Of a DNA stretch of 25,714 nucleotides, positions 5,009-25,583 are shown one piece after another. The DNA is taken from contig CAXXJS010000027.1 in NCBI GenBank assembly GCA_963662665.2, forward strand, positions 1 to 25,714, read 5' to 3'. The notes under the pieces are model-generated. The model was given only the letters and a program-made list of their open reading frames with translations. It was not told the DNA's origin and did no database searches. The translations under genes were made by a program, and so were the position numbers. The stretch is from Candidatus Latescibacterota bacterium (GTDB lineage Bacteria > Latescibacterota > UBA2968 > GCA-2709665). Position 1 is the stretch's first letter. Every line of letters begins with the position of its first letter.

Positions 5009-5382
5009 CGTTCAAACAGAATGATCTGGGCCTGAATTGAGCCGGCCTGGTTCTGGTATTCGGGATTTTCGTTCATTGCCATAAATAGGGGTCCTTCGTA
5101 GGGGGAAAAAAAGTCGAAATAGACCCCTGCAGCCAGGGGTGGGTTTTCCGAACCGACCCTGCAGACAAGGGCGCCGACGTTGGTGCCGGGCAGAAGATAG
5201 TCGTCTCCGGCCAACTGGCCTTCGACCCCGTTCGCGCTGCACCACACGATCGTGGCGGGACGCATTTCCGGCGACCAGATACCCTCTGCCGAGATGACGA
5301 GTCGCTGTTCTCTCTTTACCCTCAGATACATCTCTTGCCAGATCGCATTTGGCCTGATGGTCTTGTTGACAGTAAGCGGCAT
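5005..5382 (-). CDS. Small LecA/PA-IL-like lectin-fold protein
   Basis: 125 aa. VISAEGIWS, GALVCRVG and GPLFMAMNENPEYQNQAGSIQAQI align by eye with LecA TIVAAGWAS, GALVMKIG and [25 protein letters not shown]. Translationally coupled to the permease. Confidence 0.65.
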   Translation of the reverse strand: MPLTVNKTIRPNAIWQEMYLRVKREQRLVISAEGIWSPEMRPATIVWCSANGVEGQLAGDDYLLPGTNVGALVCRVGSENPPLAAGVYFDFFSPYEGPLFMAMNENPEYQNQAGSIQAQIILFER

Positions 5383-5435
5383 TGGTCGATTTACCCGAAC
5401 ATGGGAACGGAAACGAGGGTTCGACTGGCAGCTAC

Positions 5436-5464
5436 AAGATATGGCCTCACATCGCCAATGTCAA
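5436..5464 (-). promoter_or_regulatory. Sigma70-type promoter for the lectin-permease-SBP unit
   Basis: On the minus strand: TTGACA (5464-5459), 17-nt spacer, TATCTT (5441-5436), about 50 nt upstream of the ATG at 5382. Confidence 0.65.
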
Positions 5465-5629
5465 GGGGACTGCCAAAGGAAATGCCGCCCTCCGGTTGCA
5501 GGCTGCCAGGACCCCGTGGTTCCAACTTCGTATGCCGTAGACCGCGCAGGCATAACGTACACGTCCGGACCCTTGCCTGGACCGGTCGATCGTAACCCGG
5601 TTCGGTCCGGAATGGCGAAAGGTAGCGTA

Positions 5630-7384: not shown

Positions 7385-7433
7385 CCACTCTTGACCGACA
7401 CTTTCGTCGTCGGCTTGAAACAGGGGAATCTGA

Positions 7434-9050: not shown

Positions 9051-9869
9051 TTAAGCGTGTTTTTCTAGAAGTGCCTTGCTCTTCAGAACACCCTCGTGAT
9101 CGTTGGATCTACCCTCGAATTCGATCCCGTAAGGGTTGTCGTAACCCGCCTCCCTCAGAATGGCGAGCGCGGCGGCGCAGTCGATTTCCCGCGACTCGCC
9201 GTCCGCCGTGAAGCTGAGGAATTTTGCATGGGTCGCCCAGGCGTACGGTGCGACCATTCTGAGGTTTTCCAGCTTGTCGTCTTCTGCCGGCCAGTTCAGA
9301 AAATCGGCAAGGACCCGGCAGTGATCGCTTCCAACCGCGTCCATGATCCTGAGTATGTTTGCCGCCGATACCGACACGCCCCCGTGATTCTCCATCAGCA
9401 GCCGGATACCCGCTTGGGCACAAAGTTCGGTGAGTTCGCCAAAGCTTTCGATGCATTTTCCAATATGGGTCTCGGTCACGGATTCGCCCCTGCCGGGGCC
9501 GGTGTTGGCGCGAAACGCGTTGCAGCCCAGCCCCAGGCAGGCGTCGATCCATTTTCTGTGGTTCTCAACGGCTTGTTTTCGTTCCTTTTCGTCGGCCGAG
9601 GCGAGATCGCCGTGGCCGTCCACTGCGATATTCAGCAGCCGTACGCCCGCATCCTCCGCGCGTTGACGCAGTTCCATGAGATATCCATCGGCCAGGCAGC
9701 TGGTCGCGGGGCTCTCCGGATCGGCGTAGGCAAAGAATGGGCTGTTGAGTTCCAACAGACGAATGCCGAATTCGTCAACGGCCAGAGCGGGAAAGTCAAG
9801 GAGACGCAGGGGGTTTTCGGTTGTCCTGAACCGCCGTTGAATGCTCCAGCCCGCGAGTGAGATTTCCAT
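9051..9869 (-). CDS. Sugar phosphate isomerase/epimerase (xylose isomerase-like TIM barrel)
   Basis: ATG at 9869 with GGAGG RBS. Metal-ligand motifs LMENHGG, LADFLNW, THAK and GIEFEG. 272 aa. Confidence 0.88.
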   Translation of the reverse strand: MEISLAGWSIQRRFRTTENPLRLLDFPALAVDEFGIRLLELNSPFFAYADPESPATSCLADGYLMELRQRAEDAGVRLLNIAVDGHGDLASADEKERKQAVENHRKWIDACLGLGCNAFRANTGPGRGESVTETHIGKCIESFGELTELCAQAGIRLLMENHGGVSVSAANILRIMDAVGSDHCRVLADFLNWPAEDDKLENLRMVAPYAWATHAKFLSFTADGESREIDCAAALAILREAGYDNPYGIEFEGRSNDHEGVLKSKALLEKHA

Positions 9870-9903
9870 GGGGGTCGCCTCCGTCGTTGTATTGGGTTTG
9901 CGC

Positions 9904-9937
9904 TTGCATTTGCGGCTGAGTGGGAATATAATATTCC
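9904..9937 (+). promoter_or_regulatory. Sigma70-type promoter for the ggt-like/aspC unit with an overlapping palindrome
   Basis: TTGCAT (9904-9909), 17-nt spacer, perfect TATAAT (9927-9932). The -10 lies inside the palindrome GGAATAT-A-ATATTCC (9923-9937). Confidence 0.65.
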
Positions 9938-10097
9938 GCCGCATGCATTGCCAGCGCTTCCTGTGCTTCCGGCCGCCAACCCTGAACCGGAATTGGAAGC
10001 GCTCGTTCAGCGGATTCCGTAGTACGAAAGATACACACACAGGAACAGACGTACTCACGGACAGCGGTCTTTGCCGTTTATTTAGAAGGGATCTCAC

Positions 10098-11666
10098 GTG
10101 AAGGGCATGGTAACCGCACCCCAACCTCTGGCGGTAGACGTTGGCGTGAAGGTGCTGGCCGACGGCGGCAATGCCGTCGACGCGGCCGTAGCGGCGGCGT
10201 TTGTTCAGATGGTGGCAACGCCGCGCAGTTGCGGTGTAGGCGGTTTCGGTATGATGAACATCCATACGTCGGAAGGGGACCGGATTCTGGATTTCCATGG
10301 GAAGGCCGGCGCCCGGGTCCGGCCCGATATGTGGGAGCATGAAATCGTCCGTGAAAATGCCACGGGGTACGGATACACGCTCAGGGGACAGGTCAACGAA
10401 CGGGGCTATGGCGCGGTAACAACCCCCGGAACGGTGGCCGGCCTTTACAAGGCACAGGCGGATTTCGGGACGATGTCGTGGCGGGAGGCTCTCCAGCCGG
10501 GTATCGCGATTGCAACGGACGGATACGAAGTTACCCGCACGGAGGCGGCGTCTTGGAAACGGGTACCCACTCCCGAGACGACACCTTGGATAACCGTGGC
10601 GACCTCGCCCCACGAGGGCGGAGGCGAGTTGATTGCCAACCCGGATATGGCCAGAACATTCTCGGTTCTGGCCGAAGGCGGCGCCGACGTTTTCTATCGC
10701 GGGGATCTGGCCAGGGCAATTGCCGACGATATGGAAAAGGGCGGCGGATTTGTTACGCTGGAAGACCTCAACCGTTACGAAGTGACGGTTACGCGGCCGC
10801 TGTATTCCCGGTACCGGAAATATACCGTTGCTTCCAATCAGCCGCCCGGAGGCGGGTTGACCATTCTTCAAATGCTCAAGATCCTGGAGGGCTATGGTCT
10901 TGCGGATATGGAACACCTGTCGCCGGAGTACGTGTATACCGTATCGATGGCGATGAAGGCCGCCTGGGCCGACAGGGCGGACCGGATCGGGGATCCGGCA
11001 TTTGTCGACGTGCCCGTTGAAGACCTTCTGTGTGAGAAACGCGCGGCGGCGTGGCGCCGCCGCATCGATGCCCGGAAAGCGATCACGATCCCTCGATGGC
11101 AACCGGCTGAACCGCCGAGTACCACCCATATTTCCGTTGTTGACAGGTGGCGCAATGTGGTGGGTCTGACGCACTCGCTGGGATCCGGATCGGACGTGAT
11201 CACACCGGGATTGGGGTTTATGTACAATAACTGCATGAATTGTTTCAACCCCGTTCCCGGTCAGGTGAATTCCATTGAACCGGGCAAGTCCAGAACAACG
11301 GGTATGGCGCCCACGCTGGTGAAACTGGGTGACAAACCGTTTTTCAGCGTTGGTGCGCCCGGAGGTACCCGGATCGTGACGGGGATTCTCCATGCCATTC
11401 TGAACGTGATCGATCACGGCATGACGGCGACGGAAGCCATCGCGGCTCCCCGATTCGACTGCCAGAGCGACGTGATCGTCGCCCACTCCCGAATCGCGCC
11501 TTCCGTCTGCAATGGCGTTCGCGACATCGGCCATGACGTCCATTCCCTTCTCAACGGCTACGGTGGAATTGCGTCTGTGCATGGGATCGTTATCGATCCG
11601 TCCACCGGAGTCCTCGACGGCGGGGCGGATCCCGGTTCGCCCGGGATGGCGATGGCGGCAATCTGA
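10098..11666 (+). CDS. ggt: Gamma-glutamyltransferase-family (Ntn-hydrolase) protein, cytoplasmic, with an atypical substrate pocket
   Basis: GGNAVDAAVAAA, TPGTVAG, QPPGGG, autocleavage site STTHISVVD, GAPGGTRI and GGADP motifs. GTG start with AGAAGGGG RBS. No signal peptide. Confidence 0.88.
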   Translation: MKGMVTAPQPLAVDVGVKVLADGGNAVDAAVAAAFVQMVATPRSCGVGGFGMMNIHTSEGDRILDFHGKAGARVRPDMWEHEIVRENATGYGYTLRGQVNERGYGAVTTPGTVAGLYKAQADFGTMSWREALQPGIAIATDGYEVTRTEAASWKRVPTPETTPWITVATSPHEGGGELIANPDMARTFSVLAEGGADVFYRGDLARAIADDMEKGGGFVTLEDLNRYEVTVTRPLYSRYRKYTVASNQPPGGGLTILQMLKILEGYGLADMEHLSPEYVYTVSMAMKAAWADRADRIGDPAFVDVPVEDLLCEKRAAAWRRRIDARKAITIPRWQPAEPPSTTHISVVDRWRNVVGLTHSLGSGSDVITPGLGFMYNNCMNCFNPVPGQVNSIEPGKSRTTGMAPTLVKLGDKPFFSVGAPGGTRIVTGILHAILNVIDHGMTATEAIAAPRFDCQSDVIVAHSRIAPSVCNGVRDIGHDVHSLLNGYGGIASVHGIVIDPSTGVLDGGADPGSPGMAMAAI

Positions 11667-11809
11667 GCGTTCGATGCGGATCGAGCCGCCCTGTGTCGAA
11701 AATTTCACCGCCGCAGGTGTCCGGATCGGGGTTACGCATTCTACATAACAAAGATCAGGGTGGCGGTTCAGGGCCAACATGGACGGCCAGGATCTGGAAA
11801 GGAAACGAA

Positions 11810-13009
11810 ATGTTTGAAACGCTGGAGATAGCGCCCGCGGATCCGATTCTGGGATTGACGGCGGCGTTTAACGAGAATACGAATCCAAATCGTATCAATC
11901 TCGGCGTGGGTGTCTATAAGGACGGCGACGGCAACACGCCGGTTTTAAACTCGGTCCAACGTGCGGAGGCCCGGATCCTCGACCGGCAGACCACGAAAGA
12001 CTATCTGCTGATTTCCGGCGGGCCTGAATACGCGGCGGCCGTACAGGCCCTGTTGTTCGGCCCCGATCACGAAATCGTTACCGGACAACGGGCGGCCACT
12101 GTACAGGCGCCTGGGGGGACCGGAGGACTACGCGTCGCAGGCGATTTCGTCCACAAGCTGTTTCCTCGGGCGAGAATCTGGCTGAGCGATCCGACCTGGG
12201 CGAATCATCCCAATATCTACAAACACGCCGGGGTGGCCATTGAGACGTATGCTTATTTCGAGAAGGAGACGAACGATCTCGATTTCGCCGCAATGCGTGA
12301 TGCTTTGGCGTCCGTTCCCGAGGGAGACGTCGTACTGTTGCACGGCTGTTGTCACAACCCCACAGGGATCGATCCCACGCCCGAACAATGGGAGGAGATC
12401 GCTGACGTGGCCGCTGCGCGCGGCTGGATACCTCTGGTGGACTTTGCCTATCATGGGCTGGGGGACGGGCTCGAGCAGGACCGACGGGGATTGATGGCAT
12501 TTTGCCGATCGGGCGCCGAGTTGATGGTGTCCAGTTCGTTTTCGAAGAATTTCGGCCTTTACAACGAGCGCGTCGGCGCGCTTACCGTCGTGGCATCCTC
12601 TCCGGAGGCGGCCAGTGCGTTGATGAGCCAGGTGATGATCTGTATCCGGGCCAACTATTCGAATCCTCCGGCCCACGGCGCGGCCATCGTGACGGAGGTG
12701 CTGAACGACTCCGGACTTTGCCTGCAGTGGGAGGGCGAGGTAAAGGAGATGCGGAACCGGATCAACCGCATGCGGGCATTATTCGTGGATACCCTTGAGC
12801 GGAAAGGCGTGCGGCGCGATTTTTCGTTCATCGCCCGGCAGCGGGGAATGTTCTCGTTTTCGGGCCTGAATAGCGAACAGGTGGAAACCCTCAGGGACGA
12901 ATATTCCATCTATATGGTGGGCTCGGGTCGGATAAACGTGGCGGGCATTACAGAGGCGAACGTCGACTATCTCTGCGACTCGATTGCCGCTGTGCTTCGG
13001 GCATCGTAA
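11810..13009 (+). CDS. aspC: Aspartate/aromatic amino acid aminotransferase (class I, subgroup Ia)
   Basis: APADPILGL, NLGVGVYKD, LHGCCHNPTG, PLP-lysine motif SFSKNFGLYNERVG, IRANYSNPP and GRINVAG. ATG at 11810 after AAGGA. Confidence 0.93.
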   Translation: MFETLEIAPADPILGLTAAFNENTNPNRINLGVGVYKDGDGNTPVLNSVQRAEARILDRQTTKDYLLISGGPEYAAAVQALLFGPDHEIVTGQRAATVQAPGGTGGLRVAGDFVHKLFPRARIWLSDPTWANHPNIYKHAGVAIETYAYFEKETNDLDFAAMRDALASVPEGDVVLLHGCCHNPTGIDPTPEQWEEIADVAAARGWIPLVDFAYHGLGDGLEQDRRGLMAFCRSGAELMVSSSFSKNFGLYNERVGALTVVASSPEAASALMSQVMICIRANYSNPPAHGAAIVTEVLNDSGLCLQWEGEVKEMRNRINRMRALFVDTLERKGVRRDFSFIARQRGMFSFSGLNSEQVETLRDEYSIYMVGSGRINVAGITEANVDYLCDSIAAVLRAS

Positions 13010-13095
13010 TGCCGTCTCGACCGCGGGGGAACGTTCTCTCTTGCCGCGAAATCGACAGCGGTGAAGGCAGCCGGGAAAGTGCGGGTGAGTAGACG

Positions 13096-14598
13096 ATGGA
13101 AGATTCGCTGTTCTGGGGCGACCTGCACGCGCACTGTGCGATAAGCTATGGTTACGGCAGTCTCGATAGAGCCTTCAGACTGGCGAACGAGCACCTGGAT
13201 TTCTGTTCGGTCGTGGGGCATGCAACGTGGCACGACATGCCGGTCGATCGTGACCGGCACGGCTACGTCATCGACTACCACAGGGAGGGATTCGACAGGC
13301 TGAGACAAAACTGGCCGCACGTGCAGGAAACGGTACGGAAACATAACCGGCCGGGGCGGTTTGTTACGTTTCCGGGATACGAATGGCACTCGTGCGCCTA
13401 CGGCGACCACAACGTCTACTACCTGGAGGATGGCGGCGAAATCGTGGAGCGCGATAGCCTGGAAGAACTGGACGACGCGTTCGAAGGCCTGGACGTGATG
13501 ATCCACCCCCACCATATAGGTTATGGTGAAGGCTTCAGAGGGATCAATTGGTCGCATTTCAACGCGCGTCGCTCGCCGGCCGTCGAGATACTGTCGGGGC
13601 ACGGCGGCTCGGAGCGGGACGGCGGTCCGTATCCCATGTACCATACGATGGGGCCCAGGCAACACAGCGGTACGGTCGCGCACGGACTTGAGCTGGGTCA
13701 CCGGTTCGGTTTTCTGGGAGGCACGGACCATCATGCGGGATATCCCGGGCACTACGGCGAGGGAAGGACGGGCGTGTACGCCCCTGAACTCACGCGCCAC
13801 GCGATCTGGAACGCGATTCGCGCCCGACGCTGTTACGCGGTAACGGGAGACCGCATCGTGCTGAGCTTTTCCATTAACGACGCGGAGATGGGTGACGAGA
13901 CGGTCGTACAGGGCGCCCGTGAAATCAGGGTGGCCGCCCGGGGCGCCGACGTCCTGGATCGAATAGAGGTGGTGAAGAACAACCGGCCGTTGAAACGGGT
14001 TTTCGGCCCTCCGCCCGTACCGGCGGTGCCCGATCCGGTCCGGGCGAAGGTCCGGGTGGAATGGGGCTGGGGGGACAAAGAGGAGTGGGTGCGGTGGGAT
14101 GCCAGGGTCCGGCTCTCCGACGGTCGGCTGGTTACCGTGGAACCCTGTTTCACCGGCGATCCCGTCCTGGCGCCCTCGGCGGACGGTGCGCTCGAGGCAA
14201 CCGGCGAGGAGCCGGTTCACGGCATTGTGACGCAGGATGAACGGCACGTGGTCTGGTTCTCTCACACCCGGGGGAATCCGCATCCGTACTTGCGGGGGAC
14301 AAACGCGCTGATCCTGGAACTGGATGCGCCTCGCTCCGCCTCACTGGAATTCCGTGTGAACAGTGCAACCTATCGCTGTCTGCTGGCGGACCTTCTCAGG
14401 GGATCGAGGAGCGAGTTCATCCGGGGATGGCGGTCCGAGGCGATGCTCGTGCACCGGGCGGTACCCGAGGCCCAACTGCAAAAGTCACTCGTGTTTGAAG
14501 ACGACGAGCCGGAGCGCGATACCGATTTCTACTACGTCCGCGTTTCGCAGGAGAACAACCAGTGGGCCTGGGCAAGCCCCATCTGGGTGTCGCGTTGA
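13096..14598 (+). CDS. DUF3604-family / PHP-like metal-dependent hydrolase
   Basis: WGDLHAHC, FPGYEW, GDHNVYY, IHPHH, GGTDHHAGYPG, IRARRCYAVTG and terminal YYVRVSQENNQWAWASPIWV motifs. Confidence 0.8.
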   Translation: MEDSLFWGDLHAHCAISYGYGSLDRAFRLANEHLDFCSVVGHATWHDMPVDRDRHGYVIDYHREGFDRLRQNWPHVQETVRKHNRPGRFVTFPGYEWHSCAYGDHNVYYLEDGGEIVERDSLEELDDAFEGLDVMIHPHHIGYGEGFRGINWSHFNARRSPAVEILSGHGGSERDGGPYPMYHTMGPRQHSGTVAHGLELGHRFGFLGGTDHHAGYPGHYGEGRTGVYAPELTRHAIWNAIRARRCYAVTGDRIVLSFSINDAEMGDETVVQGAREIRVAARGADVLDRIEVVKNNRPLKRVFGPPPVPAVPDPVRAKVRVEWGWGDKEEWVRWDARVRLSDGRLVTVEPCFTGDPVLAPSADGALEATGEEPVHGIVTQDERHVVWFSHTRGNPHPYLRGTNALILELDAPRSASLEFRVNSATYRCLLADLLRGSRSEFIRGWRSEAMLVHRAVPEAQLQKSLVFEDDEPERDTDFYYVRVSQENNQWAWASPIWVSR

Positions 14599-14712
14599 AT
14601 GATCGTCCCGGTTGCGGATGTCCATGATCGGCGCGCATGGGCGCTGCGGAGTGCGACCGTGAAGGATTCCCGGGCGTCGATTCGCGCGAGTCGTGAGGAA
14701 TGGAGGTCATCG

Positions 14713-15486
14713 ATGGTGCTGAAAGATCGGGTGGCTATCGTCACGGGCGGGAGTTCGGGTATCGGCCGCGGCGTCGCCCTGGAATTCGCAAAAGAGGGCG
14801 CGGCGGTGGTGGTGGCCGATATCCAGGAGGCGCCGAAACGGGGAAAATATCACGAACAGGAAGTCCGGACAACAACTCTGGAGGAGGTGCGAGGGCTGGG
14901 TGGTGACGGGATGTTCATAGAAACCGACGTAGGCGACGCCGCCGCGGTCGAGGCCCTCGTGAACCGGACGGTCGACGGGTTCGGCGGACTGGATATTCTG
15001 GTGAATAACGCGGGAGTACATATTCCGGGGGATAGTCAGACGCTGACACTGGAGGCGTGGGACACGGTGATGGGCGTCAATATACGAGGCGTATTCGTCG
15101 CTTCCAGAACCGCGATCCCCCATTTGAAACGATCACGAGCCGGGAGAATTGTAAATATCGCGTCGGTGCATTCATTCGGCGGCGGCGGCGGCCCGGCCTA
15201 TGCGCCCGCCAAGGCCGGCGTGGTCAACCTCACGCGCGACCTGGCGATGGAAGTGGCTACGGAAGGGGTAACGGTGAATGCGGTCTGCCCGGGCTATATT
15301 GAAACCGCCATACAGGATTATCTGACCGAGGAACAGATACAGGATGCGCTGGACAACACCCCCCTTCCCCGGTTCGGATTACCCCGGGATATCGGGCGCG
15401 CGTGTGTCTTCCTGGCGTCGTCGGACGCGGAGTGGATCACGGGGGTGGCGCTGCCGGTTGACGGCGGCTGGCTCGCGCCCGTCTAA
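14713..15486 (+). CDS. Short-chain dehydrogenase/reductase (classical SDR)
   Basis: TGGSSGIG, LVNNAG, catalytic YAPAK, NAVCPG and VDGG motifs. ATG at 14713 after GGAGG. Confidence 0.93.
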   Translation: MVLKDRVAIVTGGSSGIGRGVALEFAKEGAAVVVADIQEAPKRGKYHEQEVRTTTLEEVRGLGGDGMFIETDVGDAAAVEALVNRTVDGFGGLDILVNNAGVHIPGDSQTLTLEAWDTVMGVNIRGVFVASRTAIPHLKRSRAGRIVNIASVHSFGGGGGPAYAPAKAGVVNLTRDLAMEVATEGVTVNAVCPGYIETAIQDYLTEEQIQDALDNTPLPRFGLPRDIGRACVFLASSDAEWITGVALPVDGGWLAPV

Positions 15487-15547
15487 GGGATGGAACCCGC
15501 CGCGGGCCACGAACCGCGTTCGCTTTCGATCGATTAATCGGTGAAGA

Positions 15548-16615
15548 ATGGAGATCCGAGCCGTACGAGAGGACGAGATTGAGGAGACGTTGGCGCTCCA
15601 GCGGATGGTTTTCCGGCCGGACGAGGGGGCGGTGGCGCTCGAGCGGTACCGGGCGTACGTGCGGGACGATCCGAGTTTTCGGCTGGACCAGTCGCGGGTT
15701 CTCCTGGAAGACGGGCGCATCGTGGCGCATCTGCGGGTATGGGACCGGGAGATTCGCGTGCGTGAGGCTGTTTTGCGCGCCGGCGGGATCGGCAGCGTTC
15801 TGACCCACCCCGATTACCGGGGCCGGGGGTTTGCGCGTGCGCTGATGCGGAATGCTGAATCGTACATGTTGAACGCCGGGTACGACGTTGGGCTCCTTTT
15901 TACGATTATCGGAACGCCGTTCTACGAGGCGCTGGGTTGGACACCCATCCCGCTGCCGACGTTTGCAGTCAACCTGGGGTCCGGGCCCGTTGAACGCCCG
16001 TCTCGCCGCGTCAGGGCCCTGGACGTGACCAGGGACCTGGATTGCGTGATGGAGATCTACAAGCAAGGTTCCCGTTGCCTCACCGGTCCTGAAGTGAGAC
16101 AGGGAGAGTACTGGTGTGCCGGCCCATCGCTTATACGGGGCGTTTTCCCTCAATGGGGCGTCGAGCTGGATGCGAATTTGTGCGGTTATGCGACCTTCGA
16201 GGCGAGCGAGGATCGGGTCTGGGTGAAAGAAGGTTGCGTTACGCCATCGCTTGACGACGTGTTCGAAGACCTGGCACGGCTGATCTGCCTGCACGCCCTC
16301 CGGAACGGATTAAACCGGGTAGAGGGCAGTCTTCCCGTGGGCCACGGATTGGCGCGCGCGCTTGAAAAGGTCTGTGGTTCCACCGCATCGTGGGACAGTC
16401 ACGATGAAATGATGTTGAAGGGCATCAACTGGCGCACGATCGTTGAGAAGCTGAACGGTAACCCGCGGACGGTGGGAGCGCCGGCGGACGAGGGAGCGTT
16501 CTGGCGGGCGTTGTACGGTCAGGACGTGGAAGGCCGGAGCGAAACGATGGCGGAGTGGATGGAATCTCTGCCGAAGTGTGAAGGACCCTTCTACTGGTGG
16601 AGCGACATCTTTTAG
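15548..16615 (+). CDS. GNAT-family N-acetyltransferase, Eis-like tandem GNAT
   Basis: Acetyl-CoA motif A GIGSVLTHPDYRGRGFARALM and motif B FYEALGW, followed by a degenerate second GNAT-like region. Confidence 0.8.
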   Translation: MEIRAVREDEIEETLALQRMVFRPDEGAVALERYRAYVRDDPSFRLDQSRVLLEDGRIVAHLRVWDREIRVREAVLRAGGIGSVLTHPDYRGRGFARALMRNAESYMLNAGYDVGLLFTIIGTPFYEALGWTPIPLPTFAVNLGSGPVERPSRRVRALDVTRDLDCVMEIYKQGSRCLTGPEVRQGEYWCAGPSLIRGVFPQWGVELDANLCGYATFEASEDRVWVKEGCVTPSLDDVFEDLARLICLHALRNGLNRVEGSLPVGHGLARALEKVCGSTASWDSHDEMMLKGINWRTIVEKLNGNPRTVGAPADEGAFWRALYGQDVEGRSETMAEWMESLPKCEGPFYWWSDIF

Positions 16616-18655: not shown

Positions 18656-19357
18656 ATGACTTTGCTCTTTCTATTGCCGGTTTTGTGCTTCCTGATCGTC
18701 CTTGCGCCCGTGCGTCTGTGGGCGCGAGGCCACAATGGCTCGGGGCGGGGGCCAATCCTGGAAATCCGCTTGAGACCGTGGATCGGTCTGGTGGGTATCC
18801 GGCTTTTCTGCGCTGACGGAGGTTGGCGTGTTGGCGCGCTTCTGGGATGGTGGACAGTGTGGGCTGCGCCATTGAGAGAGGGAAAAAGCAGGAAAAAGAA
18901 AAAACGGGGACACGGCGCGAGGGACAAGGCGGAAGGGGACGTTTCTACCGTGTTTTCGGCAAGAGTTGAACGGTTCGTACGGACCGTACAGCGGCTGAGG
19001 ATGCTGTCATTGCCCCTGCGGCGTTCTGCGTTACGATTTCTGAAAGGTTTCCGTCTTCGCCGCATCAAATGCAAGGTAACGTTCGGCGCATCTGATCCGG
19101 CCACGACCGGGCAGATTTACGGATACTTTATGGCCGCTTCGTCTCTCGTCGGTGCAACAGGAAGCGTCGACGTGACACCCGATTTCAAAACACGGCGTCT
19201 GGACGGGGAAGCCCGGGTGGAAATACGGATTTATCCCCACAGGCTCTTATCGGCATCCGTTTACCTGGGATGGCGCGTTGCACTTGCGTGGTTTTCGGAA
19301 CGGCGCAACCGGAACCGGCCTGAGGAAAACATTGTTGGCGCCGGCGCGACGGGTTGA
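18656..19357 (+). CDS. DUF2953 (YtfI-like) membrane-anchored protein
   Basis: N-terminal hydrophobic anchor ending LAPVRL, a basic linker, the motif FGASDPATTGQIYG...VTPDF, and adjacency to a YtfJ/GerW gene. Confidence 0.75.
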   Translation: MTLLFLLPVLCFLIVLAPVRLWARGHNGSGRGPILEIRLRPWIGLVGIRLFCADGGWRVGALLGWWTVWAAPLREGKSRKKKKRGHGARDKAEGDVSTVFSARVERFVRTVQRLRMLSLPLRRSALRFLKGFRLRRIKCKVTFGASDPATTGQIYGYFMAASSLVGATGSVDVTPDFKTRRLDGEARVEIRIYPHRLLSASVYLGWRVALAWFSERRNRNRPEENIVGAGATG

Positions 19358-19378: not shown

Positions 19379-19780
19379 ATGTCGGTTGAGGATCTAATCA
19401 GGACAATGATGACGGAATTCCGTCAAATCGTCAAGACGGAGACGGTAGTGGGGGAGCCTATTGACATAGGGGGGACAGTTGTGGTGCCCGTTTCCAGGAT
19501 TTCGTTCGGGTTCGGCGCGGGCGGAGGCGCGGACAAGTCGGACGGGGGCGGAAGCGGCACGGGAGGCGGGGCATCCGTGGAGCCCCTTGCATTCGTTGTG
19601 ATTCGAGACGGCAAGGCCCAGATTCTGCCCGTGCAGGAAAAAGAAGGGTCCATTAAAGGGTTGTTGGATTTGGCGCCGGACCTTCTGGCGAAGGCGAAGG
19701 CATTCAAAGAGAAGAGAGATCGAAAGAAAGCAGAGGTGGATGCCGATGCCGGTTCCGGCGATGACGACGTAAGCGCTTAG
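19379..19780 (+). CDS. GerW/YtfJ family protein
   Basis: VKTETVVGEPI, VVPVSRISFGFGAGGG and GSGTGGGASVEPLAFVVI motifs; GGAGG RBS. Confidence 0.88.
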   Translation: MSVEDLIRTMMTEFRQIVKTETVVGEPIDIGGTVVVPVSRISFGFGAGGGADKSDGGGSGTGGGASVEPLAFVVIRDGKAQILPVQEKEGSIKGLLDLAPDLLAKAKAFKEKRDRKKAEVDADAGSGDDDVSA

Positions 19781-19792
19781 GCCGGGGCAGCC

Positions 19793-21022
19793 ATGAACCG
19801 GCTTCTGCTTTTAATTCCAACAACAACCTATCGTACCCGCGACTTTATGGCAGCGGCGTCGAAGCTCGGCGTATCCGTCGTCGTAGGGTCCGAACGCAGC
19901 CAGGCGCTGTGGAGTCAGACCCCGGGAAGTACGCTGACGCTTGACTTCACGGAGCCTGCAGCATCGGTCGCGACGATTGTCGCCTTTTCAAAGGCGTACC
20001 CCATCCGGTCTGTAGTGGGCGTGGACGACGAGACCGTCGTGCTCGCCGCGATGGCGTGCAGCGCGCTCGGACTTCCACACAATGAGGTGACGTCGGTCCG
20101 GGCGTCCCGGTACAAACACGTGATGCGTCAGTTGCTTGCAGAAAAAGGCCTGCCCTCGCCCGGGTTCAGGCTTTTTTCATTTTCGGACAAACCGGAAACC
20201 GTCGCCCCGACGGTCGACTATCCGTGCGTGCTGAAGCCCGTGTTCCTGTCCGGCAGCCGGGGTGTGATCCGCGCAAACGAAGAAGCGGATTTCGTGACCG
20301 CTTTCGACCGGATTCGGCGGCTGATTTCGGAATCTGTACATGAGGCGCCCGAAGGCGGAGATTGTATTCTCGTGGAGGACTACATTCCCGGCCGGGAAGT
20401 CGCGCTGGAGGGATTGCTGGTTGATGGAGAACTCCGGACGCTCGCCATTTTCGACAAACCCGATCCGCTCCACGGCCCTTATTTTGCCGAGACGTTTTAC
20501 GTTACGCCCTCCCGGCTTTCCGAATGCCGGCAGGCGCAGATCCGCGAGACCGCGCAGGCGGCCGCGCGCGCGCTGGGGTTGTGCGTGGGGCCCGTACACG
20601 CCGAGCTTCGGCTGAACCCGCGTGGCATCTACGTGGTGGAAATCGCCGCGCGGTCAATCGGCGGTCTGTGTTCGCGGATATTGCGTTTTGGCGCCCGTAT
20701 GTCTCTGGAGGAATTGATTCTGCGCCAGGCAACCGGTTACGCTCCCGGCGATTTGAGGAGGGAAGAAACCGCGGCTGGCGTAATGATGCTGCCGGTGCCA
20801 GAGGCGGGGATACTGCAATGCGTGAGGGGGGTGGCACGCGCACGGCGCGTGCCCGGAATCATCGACGTGGTGATTACCGTTCCTCAGGGCCAGCACGTAC
20901 AACCGCTGCCTGAAGGTGACAGGTATCTGGGGTTCATCTTCGCCCGCAAGAAGACATCCGGGGAGGTGGAAGCGGTGCTTCGCGAGGCATACCGACGGCT
21001 CCGAGTTGTGATTGAGGGATGA
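19793..21022 (+). CDS. ATP-grasp enzyme, L-amino-acid-ligase-like
   Basis: YKHVMR, YPCVLKPVFLSGSRGV, LVEDYIPGREVALEG, HAELR and EIAARSIGG motifs, with a C-terminal LAL-type domain (YLGFIFAR). Confidence 0.88.
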   Translation: MNRLLLLIPTTTYRTRDFMAAASKLGVSVVVGSERSQALWSQTPGSTLTLDFTEPAASVATIVAFSKAYPIRSVVGVDDETVVLAAMACSALGLPHNEVTSVRASRYKHVMRQLLAEKGLPSPGFRLFSFSDKPETVAPTVDYPCVLKPVFLSGSRGVIRANEEADFVTAFDRIRRLISESVHEAPEGGDCILVEDYIPGREVALEGLLVDGELRTLAIFDKPDPLHGPYFAETFYVTPSRLSECRQAQIRETAQAAARALGLCVGPVHAELRLNPRGIYVVEIAARSIGGLCSRILRFGARMSLEELILRQATGYAPGDLRREETAAGVMMLPVPEAGILQCVRGVARARRVPGIIDVVITVPQGQHVQPLPEGDRYLGFIFARKKTSGEVEAVLREAYRRLRVVIEG

Positions 21023-21080
21023 GAAAGGGGCAATTCATCGGGTGGAGCCGTGAACGGCGCGACCGGAACCAACTTTCTTC

Positions 21081-21233
21081 TGTTCTGTCCCGGAAATAAG
21101 TTGCCTGAATTCGACCGCCTGGTCGCCCGGTCCGCAAGGCGCCACCGACCTGCGTAAGGTCGGCGAGCGAGGGGAACGTAGCGAGACGGGATGAATCGGC
21201 GGTTGAGTGGTGAGGAATCCTTGGGACAAAACA
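21081..21233. mobile_element. MITE/REP-like structured element between convergent genes
   Basis: Terminal IRs TGTTCTGTCCC (21081-21091) / GGGACAAAACA (21223-21233, 1 mismatch). Inner stem TTCGACCGCC (21110-21119) / GGCGGTTGAG (21198-21207, two G-U pairs). Core CAAGGCG (21135-21141), hairpin CCGACCT-GCGTA-AGGTCGG, then AACGTAG (21175-21181). Confidence 0.6.
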
Positions 21234-21247
21234 CCAGGTCCTTCCGA

Positions 21248-22708
21248 TCACACAAGAGCGAACTGCTCTTCGGTTGGTTCCGCTCAGCAATACCACGGCT
21301 CGGTGAGGCGCGGAAGGGGGATGCGGGTCGAATCTGCATCGGAATTCCGGACTGGCGCCGGTCGGCCCATCATGTCGTAAACATGCGATCTGATCCCGTG
21401 GAAGATCTCCCGTCGCGCCGCGTTTCGGTTCTGAAGGCGTGCGACCAACCCGGTAAGTTCGCACTGGAGCCGGTCCAAACGGACGTCCGGATGCGCCCAC
21501 GGGTAAGACAGGGCTTCCGGTTCGAAGGGCCCCACCAGGTCGCGAACCTGGGCGAGGTCGAGGAGCCTCGATCCCCCGGGGATGAGCAGGCGGATGGTGA
21601 GTTGCACGGGAGAGATATGTTCGATCAGGTCCAGGTCGGCAAGGCTGTCCAGGAAGCCGGCATACCCCTTCATCGTTATCCAGGGCGTGAACGGTATGAA
21701 CGTCGGATTCATGACGAGTCGGTGTTTCCTGAATAGGTGTACGACCTCGAAGAAATCGTCTACCGTATGGCCCTTGTCCAACAGCGAGAGGACACGGTCG
21801 TCGAGGGACTCAACGGCGGTCGTCACGAGTGCGCAGCCGGTGTCACGGAGGCGGGGCAGATAACGGCGGTACTTCAGCAGATGTTCGACTTTGACGGTGA
21901 TATCGTACGTCACATCGGGAAACTCCGCGTGGAGCTTTTCAACCAGAGGCAAGGCGTGGCCGATGCCGTTGAAGAAGTCGGGATCGCCGAACGTGATGTG
22001 GCCGGCCCCTGCAGCAACTTGCTTCCCAATGTCTACCAGCACGATTTCCGGTTGCACGATGCGAAATCTGCCCCGGTACACGGGCACCACCGGGCAATGG
22101 CGACAGAGATGTTTGCAGCCCCGGCTGGCCTCTGTATAGCCGACGGTTTTCAGGCGGCCGTCACCGGTGGACAGACGCGCGTAACGGGACAGGTCCGGTA
22201 GGCCTCTCCTGTCGGGCGGCCGAAACCGCTGTCTGTCGAGTGAAACAACGGTTTCGTCCAGGTTTCCAGCAGTGATCGAGGCCCCTCGGAGGCGGTTGCA
22301 TAGTTGAAGCAGGCCGTCTTCGAATTCACCCCCGAGTATGGTCTGCGCGCCCAGGCTTCTAAGGAAAGTTTCGTTGACTGAGGCGTAAAGACCATAGAAA
22401 CAGAGGTGCGTGTCGGCATTCTGTTTTCGCGTCCTCAGTGCAAGCGGTACGGCAAGACGGGTCGCGGTATGCATCGGCACGTAAAATGCAACCATGTCGG
22501 CGTTGCGAACGGCCTCGTCAGGGAAGTTCTCTATTGAAACGTCCGCCAGGACAACGTCGATGCCCGCCCGCCGCAACCAGCCAGCCGGCGAGGCCAAACC
22601 GAATGGCTGACGACCCAATTCATAGGTGGACACCAGAACGACATTGAACGGACGCGAACCGGAAGTGGCAGGCAACGGTATTTGGTCCCTGAAAAATACG
22701 GCAGACAC
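21248..22708 (-). CDS. CUAEP/CCAEP-tail radical SAM selenoprotein (UGA at 21286-21284 read as Sec); 486 aa
   Basis: CxxxCxxC motif RGCKHLCRHC, N-terminal B12-binding-like domain (STYELGRQPFGLAS) and ITFGDPDF. After PRLTEPWYC the sequence continues TGA GCG GAA CCA ACC GAA GAG CAG TTC GCT CTT GTG TGA, i.e. U-AEPTEEQFALV-stop. The exact start codon is uncertain. Confidence 0.88.
21254..21270 (-). promoter_or_regulatory. Candidate bacterial SECIS hairpin
   Basis: In the mRNA: UGA, 13 nt, then AAGAGC-AGUUC-GCUCUU (perfect 6-bp stem, 5-nt loop with G at loop position 2 followed by U). The loop begins 19 nt after the UGA. Confidence 0.65.
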
Positions 22709-22750: not shown

Positions 22751-23335
22751 TTATTTTGAGGACTGGTAATACGGGTTCGCGCCATCCGCGTGTTCGGTCA
22801 CGTCGAGAATTTCTTCAATTTCGGGCACGGCCTCCTTAATGAGGACTTCGACACCCTGCTTGAGCGTCACGTCCACCATACCGCAACCCTGGCATCCGCC
22901 GCCGAACTGGACGAACGCCTTGTTGTCTCTTACATCGATCAGCGAAATATGACCGCCGTGCATGGCCACGCTCGGGTTGATCTTCTCGTCGATAATGTTC
23001 TGGATTTTCTCGGCCGTGGTGCCTTTCAGGTGATGGGGTACCTTATTGGGATTTTCAATCTTGAACCCTCTCCCCATCAGGCCGTCCACAAAGTCCAGGG
23101 TGATGTCCTCGGCATACGGAGCGCTATCCGGGTCCACGTAAACGTTAAACCCCTCGAACGGCGTGACGTCGTCGTCGGCTTCTTCCTGTCCGCTGGCGAC
23201 GAAGGCGAGTCGGTAGTTGGCCTGTAGAGGTGATACCGCCTCGGCCTTGACACGAACGCCAACGATCGCCGATTCCTGGTTCCGTATCAGGTTGACAACC
23301 TCCTTCTGCGCGGCTTCGGTTACGGTGATTTTCAT
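22751..23335 (-). CDS. nfuA: Fe-S biogenesis protein NfuA (degenerate A-type domain plus NifU-C domain)
   Basis: ITVTEAA...LDFVDGLMGRGFKIENPN N-domain lacking Cys, then INPSVAMHGG, FGGGCQGCGMVDVTLKQGVE and DVTEHADGANPYY. Confidence 0.88.
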   Translation of the reverse strand: MKITVTEAAQKEVVNLIRNQESAIVGVRVKAEAVSPLQANYRLAFVASGQEEADDDVTPFEGFNVYVDPDSAPYAEDITLDFVDGLMGRGFKIENPNKVPHHLKGTTAEKIQNIIDEKINPSVAMHGGHISLIDVRDNKAFVQFGGGCQGCGMVDVTLKQGVEVLIKEAVPEIEEILDVTEHADGANPYYQSSK

Positions 23336-23375: not shown

Positions 23376-23870
23376 TCAGGACTCAAGCGCCACGATAGGC
23401 TTTGCAGGATGTTCCCGGTCTATTTTTTCCTGGATCTTCATCAGCGCAGACAGCAGGTCCTCGGGTCGCGGCGGACAGCCGGGCACGTAGATATCAACGG
23501 GCAGGAATTGATCGACGCCCTGTACCAGCGTATACGTATTGAAAACGCCTCCGGACGATGCGCATGCGCCCATCGAAATCACCCATTTGGGATCCGGCAT
23601 CTGATCGTAGATTTTCTTGAGTACAGGCATCATCTTAATCGATATACGGCCTGACACGATGAGCAGGTCGGACTGGCGGGGCGAGAACCGCACGGCTTCC
23701 GCGCCGAAGCGGGCCATATCGAAACGCCCTGAAAGCGTAGCCATCATTTCGATGGCGCAGCAGGCCGTGCCGAACGGCATTGGCCAGAGGGATGACTTGC
23801 GCGCCCAGTTAATCATTTTGGATAGCGTTGTGGTAACAACGTTGTCGCCAAGTCCCGTCTCAAGTCCCAT
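23376..23870 (-). CDS. nuoB: NADH-quinone oxidoreductase subunit B-like protein (stand-alone)
   Basis: [45 protein letters not shown] and [13 protein letters not shown] motifs. All four N2-cluster cysteines are present. Confidence 0.92.
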
Positions 23871-23976: not shown

Positions 23977-24456
23977 CTAACCCGATACCTGAATCAGTTC
24001 CTCCGTCACGTTCCGTAAACAGGCATCCATGGCCTGTTCTTCGCCCAGCAGGTCATCAAGTGTAACGCGGCTCAGCATCCGATCGATAATGGATTGCACC
24101 GAAGTCCAGAGCGACCGGATGGAGCAATCGACGGAGTGCGTACACAGTTCTCCCCGGCCGGCGTGTTCATCGCAGAATTCGGGACTGAACAGGCGACCGC
24201 CAAGCGCTCCCAGTACATCGCCAACCACAATCAGGTCGGCCGATTTCGCGAGTCGGTACCCACCGGACTGACCACGGACGCTTTCAACGAATCCCCCCAT
24301 GCGCAGCAGGCGCATCAGCTTTGCGACATTTGGGATGGAAAGGCCTTCTATCTGGCTGATTTCCGGAATGGAAAGGCCGTCGCCGGTTTCTTTCTGCCGC
24401 CGGCCGATCTGAAGCAGGCACCGAAGCCCGTATTCTTCCCCTGCGCTCAGTTTCAT
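23977..24456 (-). CDS. Rrf2-family transcriptional regulator (Fe-S sensing, IscR-like)
   Basis: MKLSAGEEYGLRCL start (ATG 24456), wHTH wing VESVRGQSGGYRLA, Cys cluster C-x9-C-x5-C followed by SIRSLW, and VTLDDL. Confidence 0.88.
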   Translation of the reverse strand: MKLSAGEEYGLRCLLQIGRRQKETGDGLSIPEISQIEGLSIPNVAKLMRLLRMGGFVESVRGQSGGYRLAKSADLIVVGDVLGALGGRLFSPEFCDEHAGRGELCTHSVDCSIRSLWTSVQSIIDRMLSRVTLDDLLGEEQAMDACLRNVTEELIQVSG

Positions 24457-24594
24457 GGAACTATCGAATTCCCGGACGGGTTGTCGTCTGGTTGATTGAA
24501 CCTGTTCGGCCAACGGCGCTACAGATGCTTGGAGACAGCGTTTTCGAACGCCACTCACGATAAAAGAACGTGGCGGCTCGTTTACGGATGCCGG

Positions 24595-25107
24595 CTATAG
24601 CAGCCCAAGCTCAAGTCTTGCCGCTTCGGACATCATCTCAGGGTTCCACGGCGGGTCGAAGGTCAGATCCAGGTTCACGTCTCGGACACCGGAAACCGAA
24701 CGTGTGGCGCTTTCCACCTGTCCTGGCAGGATGCCCGCGGCCGGACAGGCGGGGGAGGTGAGGGTCATCTGGACGTAGGTCATCCCCGTGGGTTCAACGT
24801 TGATTTCGTAAATCAGGCCGATATCGTAAATATTGACCGGAATTTCCGGGTCGAAGACCGTGCGATGGGCGGCGATAATATTCTCTCTGATGGCCTTTGT
24901 GTCAATCGGATCGCCGGATTCGTCTGCAGTCTCGCGCGCTTCGGCCATATCCTGTTTTTCTTCATCGCGTCTGGCGGCGTGCGTTTCCAGCGCGCTCGCG
25001 TCCACGGGCTTCGCATCCTCTGTCGTGTTGGAATTCGACGGGTCTTTTCGATGCGGATCGTTTTCATTGTCGTTCTTGTAAAGGCGGTTTAAAAGTCGTT
25101 CAAGCAA
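24595..25107 (-). CDS. sufT: SUF system DUF59/MIP18 (SufT/PaaD-like) Fe-S maturation protein
   Basis: VFDPEIPVNIYDIGLIYEI, MTLTSPACP and FDPPWNPEMMSEAARLELG motifs; TTG start with GGAGG RBS. Confidence 0.85.
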   Translation of the reverse strand: MLERLLNRLYKNDNENDPHRKDPSNSNTTEDAKPVDASALETHAARRDEEKQDMAEARETADESGDPIDTKAIRENIIAAHRTVFDPEIPVNIYDIGLIYEINVEPTGMTYVQMTLTSPACPAAGILPGQVESATRSVSGVRDVNLDLTFDPPWNPEMMSEAARLELGLL

Positions 25108-25130: not shown

Positions 25131-25583
25131 CTACTCGGTGGTCACCGGCAACTCGCGGTCTTCAAGTGCGGCCAGGAGCGTATGCCATGACAGGGTTGCG
25201 CATTTGATGCGCATAGGGAACTCTCTCACGCCTGCGAAGACGGCCAGTTTTCCGATGCCGTCGGTGACGGGTCGGGTAGAAACGTCACTGGTGACCAGGT
25301 CGTGAAACTTTCCGAAGAGCGCCTGGGTTTCTTGAAGGCTCCGTCCCTTGACCGCATCGGTCATCAGGGAAGCCGAAGCCTTGGAAATGGCGCACCCCGC
25401 TCCTTGAAAAGCGATATCCGCGATGCGGTCGCCGTCGAGATTGACGTAGAGGCTCAAATGATCGCCGCACAACGGGTTGTGTCCGTGGGACGTTCGATCC
25501 GCGGGGGACATGGACCGGTAGTTGCGCGGACTCCGATTGTGGTCGAGAATGACCTGCTGGTAGAGTTCCCGGAGGTCGGACAT
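25131..25583 (-). CDS. sufU: SUF system NifU-family sulfur-transfer/scaffold protein
   Basis: LYQQVILDH, NPLCGD, GCAISKASASLM and PMRIKCATLSW motifs. Confidence 0.93.
   Translation of the reverse strand: MSDLRELYQQVILDHNRSPRNYRSMSPADRTSHGHNPLCGDHLSLYVNLDGDRIADIAFQGAGCAISKASASLMTDAVKGRSLQETQALFGKFHDLVTSDVSTRPVTDGIGKLAVFAGVREFPMRIKCATLSWHTLLAALEDRELPVTTE

Follow-up and report, generated by a model that had tools for sequence, protein, structure and literature searches.

We analyzed a 25,714-bp stretch of DNA from a Candidatus Latescibacterota bacterium (contig CAXXJS010000027.1, positions 1 to 25,714; hereafter the window), in which a gene for an L-amino-acid ligase (LAL)-type ATP-grasp enzyme lies beside a gene for a radical S-adenosylmethionine (SAM) selenoprotein, a pairing that we find conserved in several bacterial phyla. 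The ATP-grasp gene (19793-21022, plus strand) encodes a 409-residue protein with the N-terminus MNRLLLLIPTTTYRTRDF, assigned from its Pfam domains and from a match to the ligase BL00235. The radical SAM (rSAM) gene (21248-22708, minus strand) encodes 486 residues including a selenocysteine (Sec) at position 475, and was assigned by the NCBIfam model NF040546 and by read-through translation. Its start is ambiguous, being either the GTG at 22708 or 11 codons on (22675-22708 region); the later start is used in an identical database protein (P0002, 463 residues) and in most homologs. The two genes are convergent, tail to tail, with a 225-bp intergenic spacer (21023-21247) between them. An initial annotation of the window had described them as immediate neighbors about 225 bp apart, in agreement with our open reading frame (ORF) coordinates and read-through translation, and had proposed that the rSAM enzyme makes an unusual amino acid that the ligase then joins into a peptide.

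The rSAM protein matches NF040546, "CUAEP/CCAEP-tail radical SAM (seleno)protein", with 612.5 bits (cut-off 500) over residues 23-484 of 486. The next best NCBIfam model is that of ArsL (NF040542, 270.2 bits), an enzyme that makes the antibiotic arsinothricin, and all other named rSAM families score at most 35 bits. The uninterrupted ORF (21284-22708, minus strand) stops at a TGA after ...EPWYC, and translating this TGA as Sec continues the frame as CUAEPTEEQFALV to a second TGA at 21250-21248. Both the cluster motif CxxxCxxC (C198, C202 and C205) and the tail motif W-Y-C-[U/C]-A-E-P (C474 and U475 in the window) are invariant across 38 full-length homologs. The family is large, with at least 578 matching stretches in species-representative genomes; from these we took the best 80 matches, with up to 10 kb on each side of the rSAM gene, as a locus set (L numbers below). 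In 59 of the 80 loci EPW[YF]C is followed by TGA and in 15 by TGC, the motif not being found in the other 6, and the tail AEPT..Q is conserved downstream of the TGA. Together, the read-through frame and the 80 homologous loci make selenocysteine at the window's UGA codon (21286-21284, minus strand; motif WYC-U-AEP) a well-supported prediction.

Starting 13 nt past the UGA is a hairpin resembling a selenocysteine insertion sequence (SECIS) element (21270-21254, minus strand), with a 6-bp stem (AAGAGC/GCUCUU) and the loop AGUUC. The hairpin occupies the same position in the Sec forms of the family, where its stem carries compensatory changes, and is degraded in the Cys forms. In 59 Sec sequences (those of 58 loci and the window) its minimum free energy averages -10.9 kcal/mol, versus -5.4 kcal/mol in 15 Cys sequences (Mann-Whitney p = 2e-8). 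The window's 65-nt segment folded alone is unexceptional (z = 0.38); it is by comparison among homologs that the behavior of this putative element fits a bacterial SECIS. The Sec-insertion genes selA, selB, selC and selD are not in the window, which also contains no tRNA or tmRNA gene.

The ATP-grasp protein contains three Pfam domains, all scoring over their cut-offs: ATPgrasp_N (53.7 bits), ATP-grasp_4 (113.9 bits) and LAL_C2 (65.8 bits). It matches the solved LAL BL00235 (3VOT) over its full length (E 1.3e-34, residues 65-407 to 70-415), and has all invariant residues of a 35-member subfamily alignment, including K148, E195, E202, H269, E271, R273, E283 and R287. The three-domain architecture is that of the known LALs BL00235, BacD/YwfE, RizA and LdmS, but the window protein belongs to a separate subfamily with invariant residues of its own, such as C293. 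Named equivalog models fit it poorly, with 57.6 bits against a cut-off of 850 for BacD (NF053745) and 49.8 against 840 for DdaF (NF041595).

We searched the 80 loci with the window's own proteins by tblastn, and found an ATP-grasp ortholog in 48 of them, always within ~1.1 kb of the rSAM gene. Ten of the 32 loci lacking it have less than 2 kb of downstream flank, leaving 48 paired loci among 70 that can be assessed. The orthologs are 41-77% identical to the window protein and mostly full length, with four matches cut by contig ends at 31-41%. Paired loci make up 37 of 47 assessable loci in Acidobacteriota, 3 of 3 in Methylomirabilota, 2 of 3 in Gemmatimonadota, 1 of 2 in Latescibacterota and 5 of 5 without phylum assignment; no paired ATP-grasp gene was found in the assessable loci of Chloroflexota (0 of 6) or of Actinomycetota, Calditrichota, Dormiibacterota and Pseudomonadota (0 of 1 each). 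As a control, the window's YtfJ, DUF2953, phosphoglucomutase, GNAT and SDR genes recur in only 2 of the 80 loci, those of the two closest relatives, showing that background synteny decays quickly. In a quick maximum-likelihood tree of the rSAM proteins, paired loci fall to either side of the midpoint root; they cluster in a single acidobacterial clade (39 of 45 rows), and one clade of 10 rows is entirely unpaired. The lists of rSAM and ATP-grasp homologs also share seven identical longest-contig values, three of them for short contigs (7.7-14.6 kb).

The arrangement of the pair varies among these loci. The ATP-grasp gene lies directly downstream of the rSAM gene on the same strand in 37 (tblastn gaps of 28-313 bp), and downstream with one intervening gene in 6, that gene encoding a DUF169 protein (PF02596) in 5 of them. 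It lies upstream with nfuA in between in 2 (L013 and L015), and only 3 loci (L001, L002 and L067) show the convergent arrangement of the window. The gene-neighborhood analysis that the initial annotation had called for is therefore positive, with 48 of 80 loci in four arrangements and four named phyla. That annotation had also flagged the opposite orientation of the two genes as a caveat; this is true of the window, but 43 of the 48 pairs are co-directional with the ATP-grasp gene downstream, so the opposite strands appear to be a local peculiarity.

We also searched for longer proteins containing the rSAM sequence, and found seven. Three of these (P0243, P0244 and P0247; 860-877 residues) join rSAM and ATP-grasp sequences, but their junctions are frame-shifted in the rSAM C-terminus or tail: one example reads LHDRGVVLL where PYMTEPWYC is expected, and the frame-shifted reading avoids the UGA. 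We therefore rejected them as natural, Rosetta-stone fusions and took them as indel or gene-calling artifacts; they do show same-strand adjacency of the two genes on three more contigs. Two others, P0248 and P0242, were rejected because they look like garbled or antisense read-throughs. In P0245 (865 residues, on a 431-kb contig), a PaaK-like AMP-binding domain (PF00501) is joined to a CUAEP-type rSAM protein through an unconserved linker, possibly as a read-through artifact. If genuine, this fusion would replace the ligase by another type of ATP-dependent enzyme that activates carboxylates.

A parallel pairing is found in the ArsL family. A tblastn search of annotated plasmids yielded 36 records with an rSAM protein carrying the RCCLKC tail of that family, and in 35 of these a search with the ATP-grasp protein of Alicyclobacillus pAACI01 located an ortholog 0.3-3.4 kb from the rSAM gene. 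The paired records span five genera (20 from the Bacillus cereus group, 7 Priestia, 6 Pantoea, 1 Klebsiella and 1 Alicyclobacillus) and are redundant, representing about five cluster types. The sole record without the ATP-grasp gene is an arsQ-arsL-arsM cluster of Pseudomonas amygdali. On Alicyclobacillus pAACI01 the gene order is CMD-family protein, ATP-grasp, MFS transporter, "putative arsinothricin biosynthesis methyltransferase ArsM" and RCCLKC-tail rSAM, with an ArsN1 N-acetyltransferase further on. The Pantoea order is ArsR, rSAM, hypothetical protein, ATP-grasp, MFS transporter, arsM, COG0523-type GTPase and aquaporin, and this cluster adjoins arsR, an arsenic transporter gene, arsC and arsH; that of B. 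cereus AH820 lies beside arsR-ACR3-arsC-arsD-arsA. In these plasmid clusters (L082 2118-7272, L083 2151-11131 and L084 4633-12469), the gene ahead of the ATP-grasp gene often encodes a small protein, either hypothetical or of the CMD family, and the cluster also includes a COG0523-type GTPase.

The ArsL-linked ATP-grasp enzyme is 25% identical to the window enzyme over 365 residues (E 2e-22). It contains ATP-grasp_4, with LAL_C2 and ATPgrasp_N just below their cut-offs, and its best solved relative is the same as that of the window enzyme, BL00235 (3VOT, E 6e-28). Both systems combine a Cys-rich-tail rSAM protein with a BL00235-like ATP-grasp enzyme of ~410 residues, and in the Pantoea and Klebsiella clusters, as at most CUAEP loci, the ligase gene closely follows the rSAM gene on its strand. 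Unlike the window, the plasmid clusters carry ArsR, ArsM, MFS or aquaporin transporters, a COG0523 GTPase, an ArsN-type GNAT protein and arsenic efflux genes. The plasmid search also returned one CUAEP/CCAEP protein (42% identity), encoded on a megaplasmid of the cultured bacterium Thermomicrobium roseum. At this locus (L081, 7521-11867), the CUAEP/CCAEP-tail rSAM gene is accompanied by a divergent gene for a pyridoxal phosphate-dependent aminotransferase and a convergent one for an MFS transporter, and there is no ATP-grasp gene within 9 kb.

The presence of the pair in 48 of 80 loci, together with the same pairing in the ArsL clusters of 35 of 36 plasmid records, makes a functional link between the rSAM and ATP-grasp enzymes well supported. 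The window by itself would also allow a reading in which the convergent ends of two unrelated operons, one running from the SUF genes to the rSAM gene and the other formed by DUF2953, ytfJ and the ATP-grasp gene, are adjacent by chance or through inherited synteny. Each gene is indeed tightly packed with its own-strand neighbors, the two are on opposite strands across a 225-bp spacer, and 22 of the 70 assessable loci lack the ATP-grasp gene. Such a reading is very improbable: the pair persists through four arrangements and four named phyla while all other flanking genes change, and the recurrence of the pairing in a sister rSAM family contradicts it as well.

To our knowledge, no enzyme other than ArsL pairs a canonical CxxxCxxC radical SAM site with 3-amino-3-carboxypropyl (ACP)-radical chemistry. 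The window rSAM protein resembles it in an N-terminal Rossmann-like domain, the CxxxCxxC core and a C-terminal Cys-rich tail with a vicinal pair. The two differ in the tail itself, which in ArsL is RCCLKC with three Cys and in the window is WYC-U/C-AEP, ~12 or more residues from the end, with two chalcogens, one of them usually selenium. They differ also in surroundings, with no arsM, arsQ, arsN or ars operon near the window gene, and in distribution, the CUAEP family (at least 578 stretches in species-representative genomes) being far more widespread than ArsL. According to the available parts of two reports, ArsL cleaves SAM to 5'-methylthioadenosine and an ACP radical, its RCCLKC tail binds As(III), and truncating the tail or changing its three Cys to Ala abolishes As(III) binding or formation of hydroxyarsinothricin (AST-OH) (10.1101/2024.02.01.577332; 10.64898/2026.04.29.721666). 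The first of these names Dph2, of diphthamide synthesis, as the one further enzyme known for generating an ACP radical from SAM (10.1101/2024.02.01.577332). Unlike the rSAM protein studied here, Dph2 is without a CxxxCxxC motif and acts on a protein histidine.

We propose that the conserved pair constitutes a two-step module, in which an ArsL-like reaction would place ACP on an atom bound to the Cys-Sec tail and ATP-dependent ligation into a dipeptide would follow; we give this proposal an even chance of being right. In the first step, judging by homology to ArsL, the rSAM enzyme would bind a [4Fe-4S] cluster through C198, C202 and C205 and cleave SAM reductively at the C-gamma-S bond, giving an ACP radical as ArsL does. 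By analogy between the tails, with the CUAEP tail presumed to correspond to the RCCLKC tail by which ArsL binds As(III), the ACP group would be attached to a soft atom on the vicinal Cys474-Sec475 pair of the flexible C-terminus. This would yield a 2-amino-4-(X)-butanoate, a look-alike of methionine and glutamate, with As(III) or methyl-As(III), Hg(II), Sb, and Se or S species as candidates for X. In the second step, as its family membership suggests, the LAL-type enzyme would activate a carboxylate with ATP and ligate the product to a second amino acid, and the dipeptide might serve masking, storage or export. Bialaphos, in which a toxic amino acid is hidden in a peptide, offers an analogy for ligating a glutamate or methionine mimic; bialaphos itself is assembled by nonribosomal peptide synthetase enzymes, not by an ATP-grasp ligase. 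Methionine is ACP-S-CH3, and would share its skeleton with the expected ArsL-type product. Among known LALs, the products of BL00235 include Met-Gly and Met-Met (table 2 of the review PMC6920838), and LdmS makes Asp-Met, as stated in the available part of PMC9486568.

We built an AlphaFold 2 (AF2) model of the rSAM protein on the 38 full-length homologs (mean pLDDT, the predicted local distance difference test, 87.2; predicted TM-score 0.87). The tail is modeled less confidently, with pLDDT of ~60 at residues 471-480 and below 50 at residues 479-486. The nearest solved folds of the predicted structure are rSAM enzymes of the B12-domain type, AprD4 (TM 0.63-0.65) and OxsB, MgmA and TsrM (0.53-0.65), and no ArsL structure is among the solved-fold matches listed. 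Sequence-profile searches gave only weak matches in the PDB. A B12-binding-like domain may be present at the N-terminus (PF02310, 22 bits, below the 32.1 cut-off), and the N-terminal extensions of the rSAM ORF in L012, L057, L009 and L063 add no further Pfam domain.

These fold neighbors leave room for a linked pair with a chemistry unlike that of ArsL, in which a 5'-deoxyadenosyl radical or the B12-like domain would modify the dipeptide made by the ATP-grasp enzyme, or another small molecule, and Cys-Sec would act as a redox or hydrogen-atom-donating tail, on the model of the C-terminal Cys-Sec of thioredoxin reductase. This accounts for the conservation of the pair in 48 loci, agrees with the sub-threshold PF02310 match and with AprD4, TsrM, OxsB and MgmA as closest folds, and draws on the fact that the order of the two steps is not fixed by the data. 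ArsL is nevertheless the nearest characterized family by a wide margin (270 bits versus at most 35), and its tail is a substrate-binding site. The ATP-grasp pairing in ArsL clusters also counts against a different chemistry, since it is most simply explained if both rSAM enzymes hand the ligase an amino acid. On balance we consider this alternative unlikely.

The window rSAM gene lies in an iron-sulfur (Fe-S) context. The rSAM gene is the last in a same-strand, SUF-type string whose other members, all on the minus strand, encode SufU (25131-25583; sulfur transfer; TIGR01994 160.5 bits, cut-off 92.5), a SufT-like/DUF59 Fe-S assembly protein (24595-25107; PF01883; TIGR02945 134.6 bits, just under the 143.4 cut-off), an Rrf2-family, SUF/IscR-like regulator (23977-24558), a NuoB-family 4Fe-4S protein (23376-23870; NF005012 240.8 bits, cut-off 116) and an NfuA-like Fe-S carrier (22751-23335; Pfam Fe-S_biosyn and NifU; TIGR03341 160 bits, below the 269 cut-off). 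The NfuA-like gene is 42 bp upstream of the rSAM gene. It is unusual for a single nuoB-family gene (23376-23870) to sit within a suf operon. In the closest relative, L001 (2009-9925), the string extends upstream as sufB-sufC-sufD-sufS. Across the 80 loci, nfuA is directly upstream of the rSAM gene in 7, from 4 named phyla. By tblastn, a further 38 loci have an adjacent gene for YggX (PF04362), which traffics Fe(II), either directly upstream of the rSAM gene or convergent after the ATP-grasp gene (for example L042 12862-13194, minus strand, and L004 9622-9954, plus strand). An 890-residue ORF that reads as aconitase, named from sequence only, is divergent upstream of the rSAM gene in 34.

This context may reflect cluster supply to the rSAM enzyme, inherited synteny within Acidobacteriota, or a real functional tie; in the lineage of the window, the place of the rSAM gene at the end of the SUF/NfuA operon may likewise reflect cluster supply, or else a part played in shielding Fe-S metabolism against thiophilic elements. 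One form of such a tie would dispense with a foreign metalloid: the rSAM tail would take S or Se from the SufS/SufU relay and, with the ligase, make an S- or Se-containing amino-acid derivative that supports or protects Fe-S assembly. The position of the rSAM gene at the end of a sufBCDS-sufU-sufT-rrf2-nuoB-nfuA string in the window and L001-L003 argues for this, as do the nfuA, YggX and aconitase neighbors counted above. However, Fe-S supply is needed by any rSAM enzyme, YggX and aconitase are neighbors mostly within Acidobacteriota, where inherited synteny could account for them, and a homocysteine-type product made from SAM would be metabolically circular. The ArsL parallel and a further set of partner genes at other loci (HgcAB-like, CpaM, MerB-like and DUF169) point instead to carbon-metal(loid) chemistry, and we judge an S- or Se-based role in Fe-S homeostasis to be rather improbable.

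That further set comes from loci lacking the ligase, some of which point to carbon-metal(loid) chemistry. In L075 (8761-16175), the gene order is rSAM, DUF169, CpaM ("corrinoid protein-associated methyltransferase", 245 bits, cut-off 180), an HgcAB-like fusion protein (332 bits, cut-off 285), a second rSAM gene of the B12 type and an aminotransferase, with no ATP-grasp gene. The same DUF169, CpaM (254 bits) and HgcAB-like genes were found by tblastn in L043 (9643-13897), again with no ATP-grasp gene. In L006 (a cultured Nonomuraea sp., 9824-15887), a Cys-type rSAM gene is followed by genes for a methyltransferase, a class I/II aminotransferase, a MerB-like protein of the alkylmercury-lyase family (PF03243 51 bits; below the NCBIfam MerB cut-offs) and DUF169. 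These HgcAB-like, CpaM and MerB-like associations amount to 3 of the 80 loci, all without the ATP-grasp gene, and none of these genes is in the window. In Nitrospina, HgcA-like genes are flanked by MerR, a UbiE-type methyltransferase, DUF169 and YHS, according to the accessible part of one preprint (10.1101/648329). Another, likewise seen in part, describes the CU dipeptide as rare and lists it in this rSAM family, in HgcA, in SAO-system proteins and in some MerT (Haft and Gwadz, 10.1101/2022.07.06.499078), so that HgcA and the SAO-system and MerT variants have this dipeptide in common with the CUAEP rSAM proteins. We rejected the aminotransferase as a third conserved partner, as it adjoins the rSAM gene only in L006, L075 and Thermomicrobium.

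Several observations weigh against the ACP-transfer and ligation module. The window rSAM protein is under the ArsL cut-off (270.2 versus 450 bits for NF040542) and is without the RCCLKC tail, its own tail (EPWYCUAEPTEEQFALV) offering two chalcogen ligands and not three. Its sequence does not separate ACP-radical from 5'-deoxyadenosyl-radical chemistry, and its probable fold neighbors are B12-domain rSAM enzymes with other chemistries. The ligase is missing within 10 kb of the rSAM gene in 22 of 70 assessable loci, and is hence either not obligatory or encoded elsewhere in those genomes. Since 53 of the 80 loci are from Acidobacteriota, the count of 48 paired loci overstates the number of independent events, and with only 25% identity between them the two groups of ATP-grasp enzymes may have been recruited independently. 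In the window itself, the ATP-grasp gene is on the opposite strand from the rSAM gene and in a different operon, and family scans of the genes in all 25.7 kb found no ars, mer or metalloid transporter gene, bearing out a caveat of the initial annotation that arsM and other ars genes are absent. YggX, aconitase and NfuA, the commonest other neighbors, fit a core metabolic role better than niche detoxification or antibiotic synthesis. A simple arsenic version of the module is opposed in particular by the lack of ars genes in the window, by two tail ligands in place of three, and by a housekeeping-like neighborhood; the context of the window is SUF/NfuA iron-sulfur rather than metalloid resistance.

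Making an unusual SAM-derived amino acid and then ligating it remains the best available reading of what these sequences suggest. The functional link in the initial annotation's version of it stands, through the gene neighborhoods and the ArsL parallel; its chemistry, acceptor atom, order of steps and purpose are what we infer. For the chemistry, ACP transfer by the window rSAM protein is suggested by its homology to an ArsL-family protein (33% identity over 409 residues, E 2e-73), at a score below the ArsL cut-off. More speculatively, the two rSAM families may define a widespread and undescribed class of SAM-derived organo-element amino-acid dipeptides, in which a dedicated BL00235-like ligase would receive a 2-amino-4-(X)-butanoate from tail-Cys/Sec rSAM enzymes of both the CUAEP and ArsL types. 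On this scheme, the products of the ArsL plasmid clusters would be arsinothricin-containing dipeptides, comparable to bialaphos but with arsenic. The much commoner CUAEP selenoenzyme, found in soil Acidobacteriota, Methylomirabilota and Gemmatimonadota, would bond carbon to another soft element (Hg, Sb, Se/Te or methyl-As), with a function tied to Fe-S homeostasis and not to classical resistance operons. We regard this broader scheme as possible but doubtful.

What is already known is the rSAM family by name, from NCBI curators, and its selenoprotein status. In full-text searching for CUAEP/CCAEP tails, only one relevant preprint was found, and its accessible part calls the structures and functions of the CUAEP rSAM family and of KCU-star "not well known" (Haft and Gwadz, 10.1101/2022.07.06.499078). 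The pairing of an LAL-type ligase with the CUAEP rSAM protein, and the same pairing in ArsL clusters, appear to be undescribed in the searchable literature. We found no description of a radical SAM selenoprotein paired with an ATP-grasp enzyme in searchable full text, outside of which lie subscription journals and bioRxiv supplements. Nor did we find there, among the matches listed, a description of ArsL or arsinothricin paired with an amino acid ligase, the one co-mention being a paper that has an arsinothricin study in its reference list alone and deals with unrelated ATP-grasp enzymes; in a text search of the original arsinothricin cluster paper (PMC8552651), neither "ATP-grasp" nor "ligase" occurs. 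A conserved LAL-type ligase beside both CUAEP rSAM proteins and ArsL gives the CUAEP family a testable two-step pathway, and the ArsL/ATP-grasp pairing predicts peptide forms of arsinothricin-like compounds. If the proposed pathway is correct, it would contain a new, selenocysteine-using reaction that forms a carbon-heteroatom bond, and in abundant soil phyla it might tie metal(loid) chemistry to the maintenance of Fe-S clusters.

The spacer between the two genes (21023-21247) had been taken to be mostly filled by an element resembling a miniature inverted-repeat transposable element (MITE). We rejected this reading as unsupported, the spacer having no second copy in the window or the locus set, no terminal repeats and no significant structure. 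No other copy was found in the window or the 80 loci, including L001 and L002 with the same convergent arrangement, and no terminal inverted repeats are confined to the spacer. The sole long-range inverted repeat is 13 nt long (21061-21073 and 21273-21285) and has one arm inside the coding sequence of the rSAM tail. The fold of the spacer is no better than that of shuffled sequences (z = -1.3; 22 of 200 shuffles as good). The spacer has no Rfam match, at the gathering threshold or at E <= 1, an Rfam search of the whole window likewise gave none, and a scan of the spacer for a consensus promoter and terminator found none.

On the other side of the spacer, the ATP-grasp gene is packed behind two genes on the same strand, a DUF2953 gene (18656-19357, plus strand) and, directly upstream, a YtfJ/GerW-family gene (19379-19780, plus strand). 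Genes of these two families are known from Bacillus sporulation operons. Among the 80 loci they are kept beside the ATP-grasp gene only in the two closest relatives, L001 and L002, and therefore look lineage-specific and not part of the conserved module. Elsewhere in the window, a 710-residue ORF (5252-7384, plus strand) and two ORFs of 496 or 519 residues that overlap on opposite strands (7308-8993) have no Pfam match. A 909-residue ORF (9051-11780, minus strand) has as its sole Pfam match a C-terminal xylose-isomerase-like TIM barrel.

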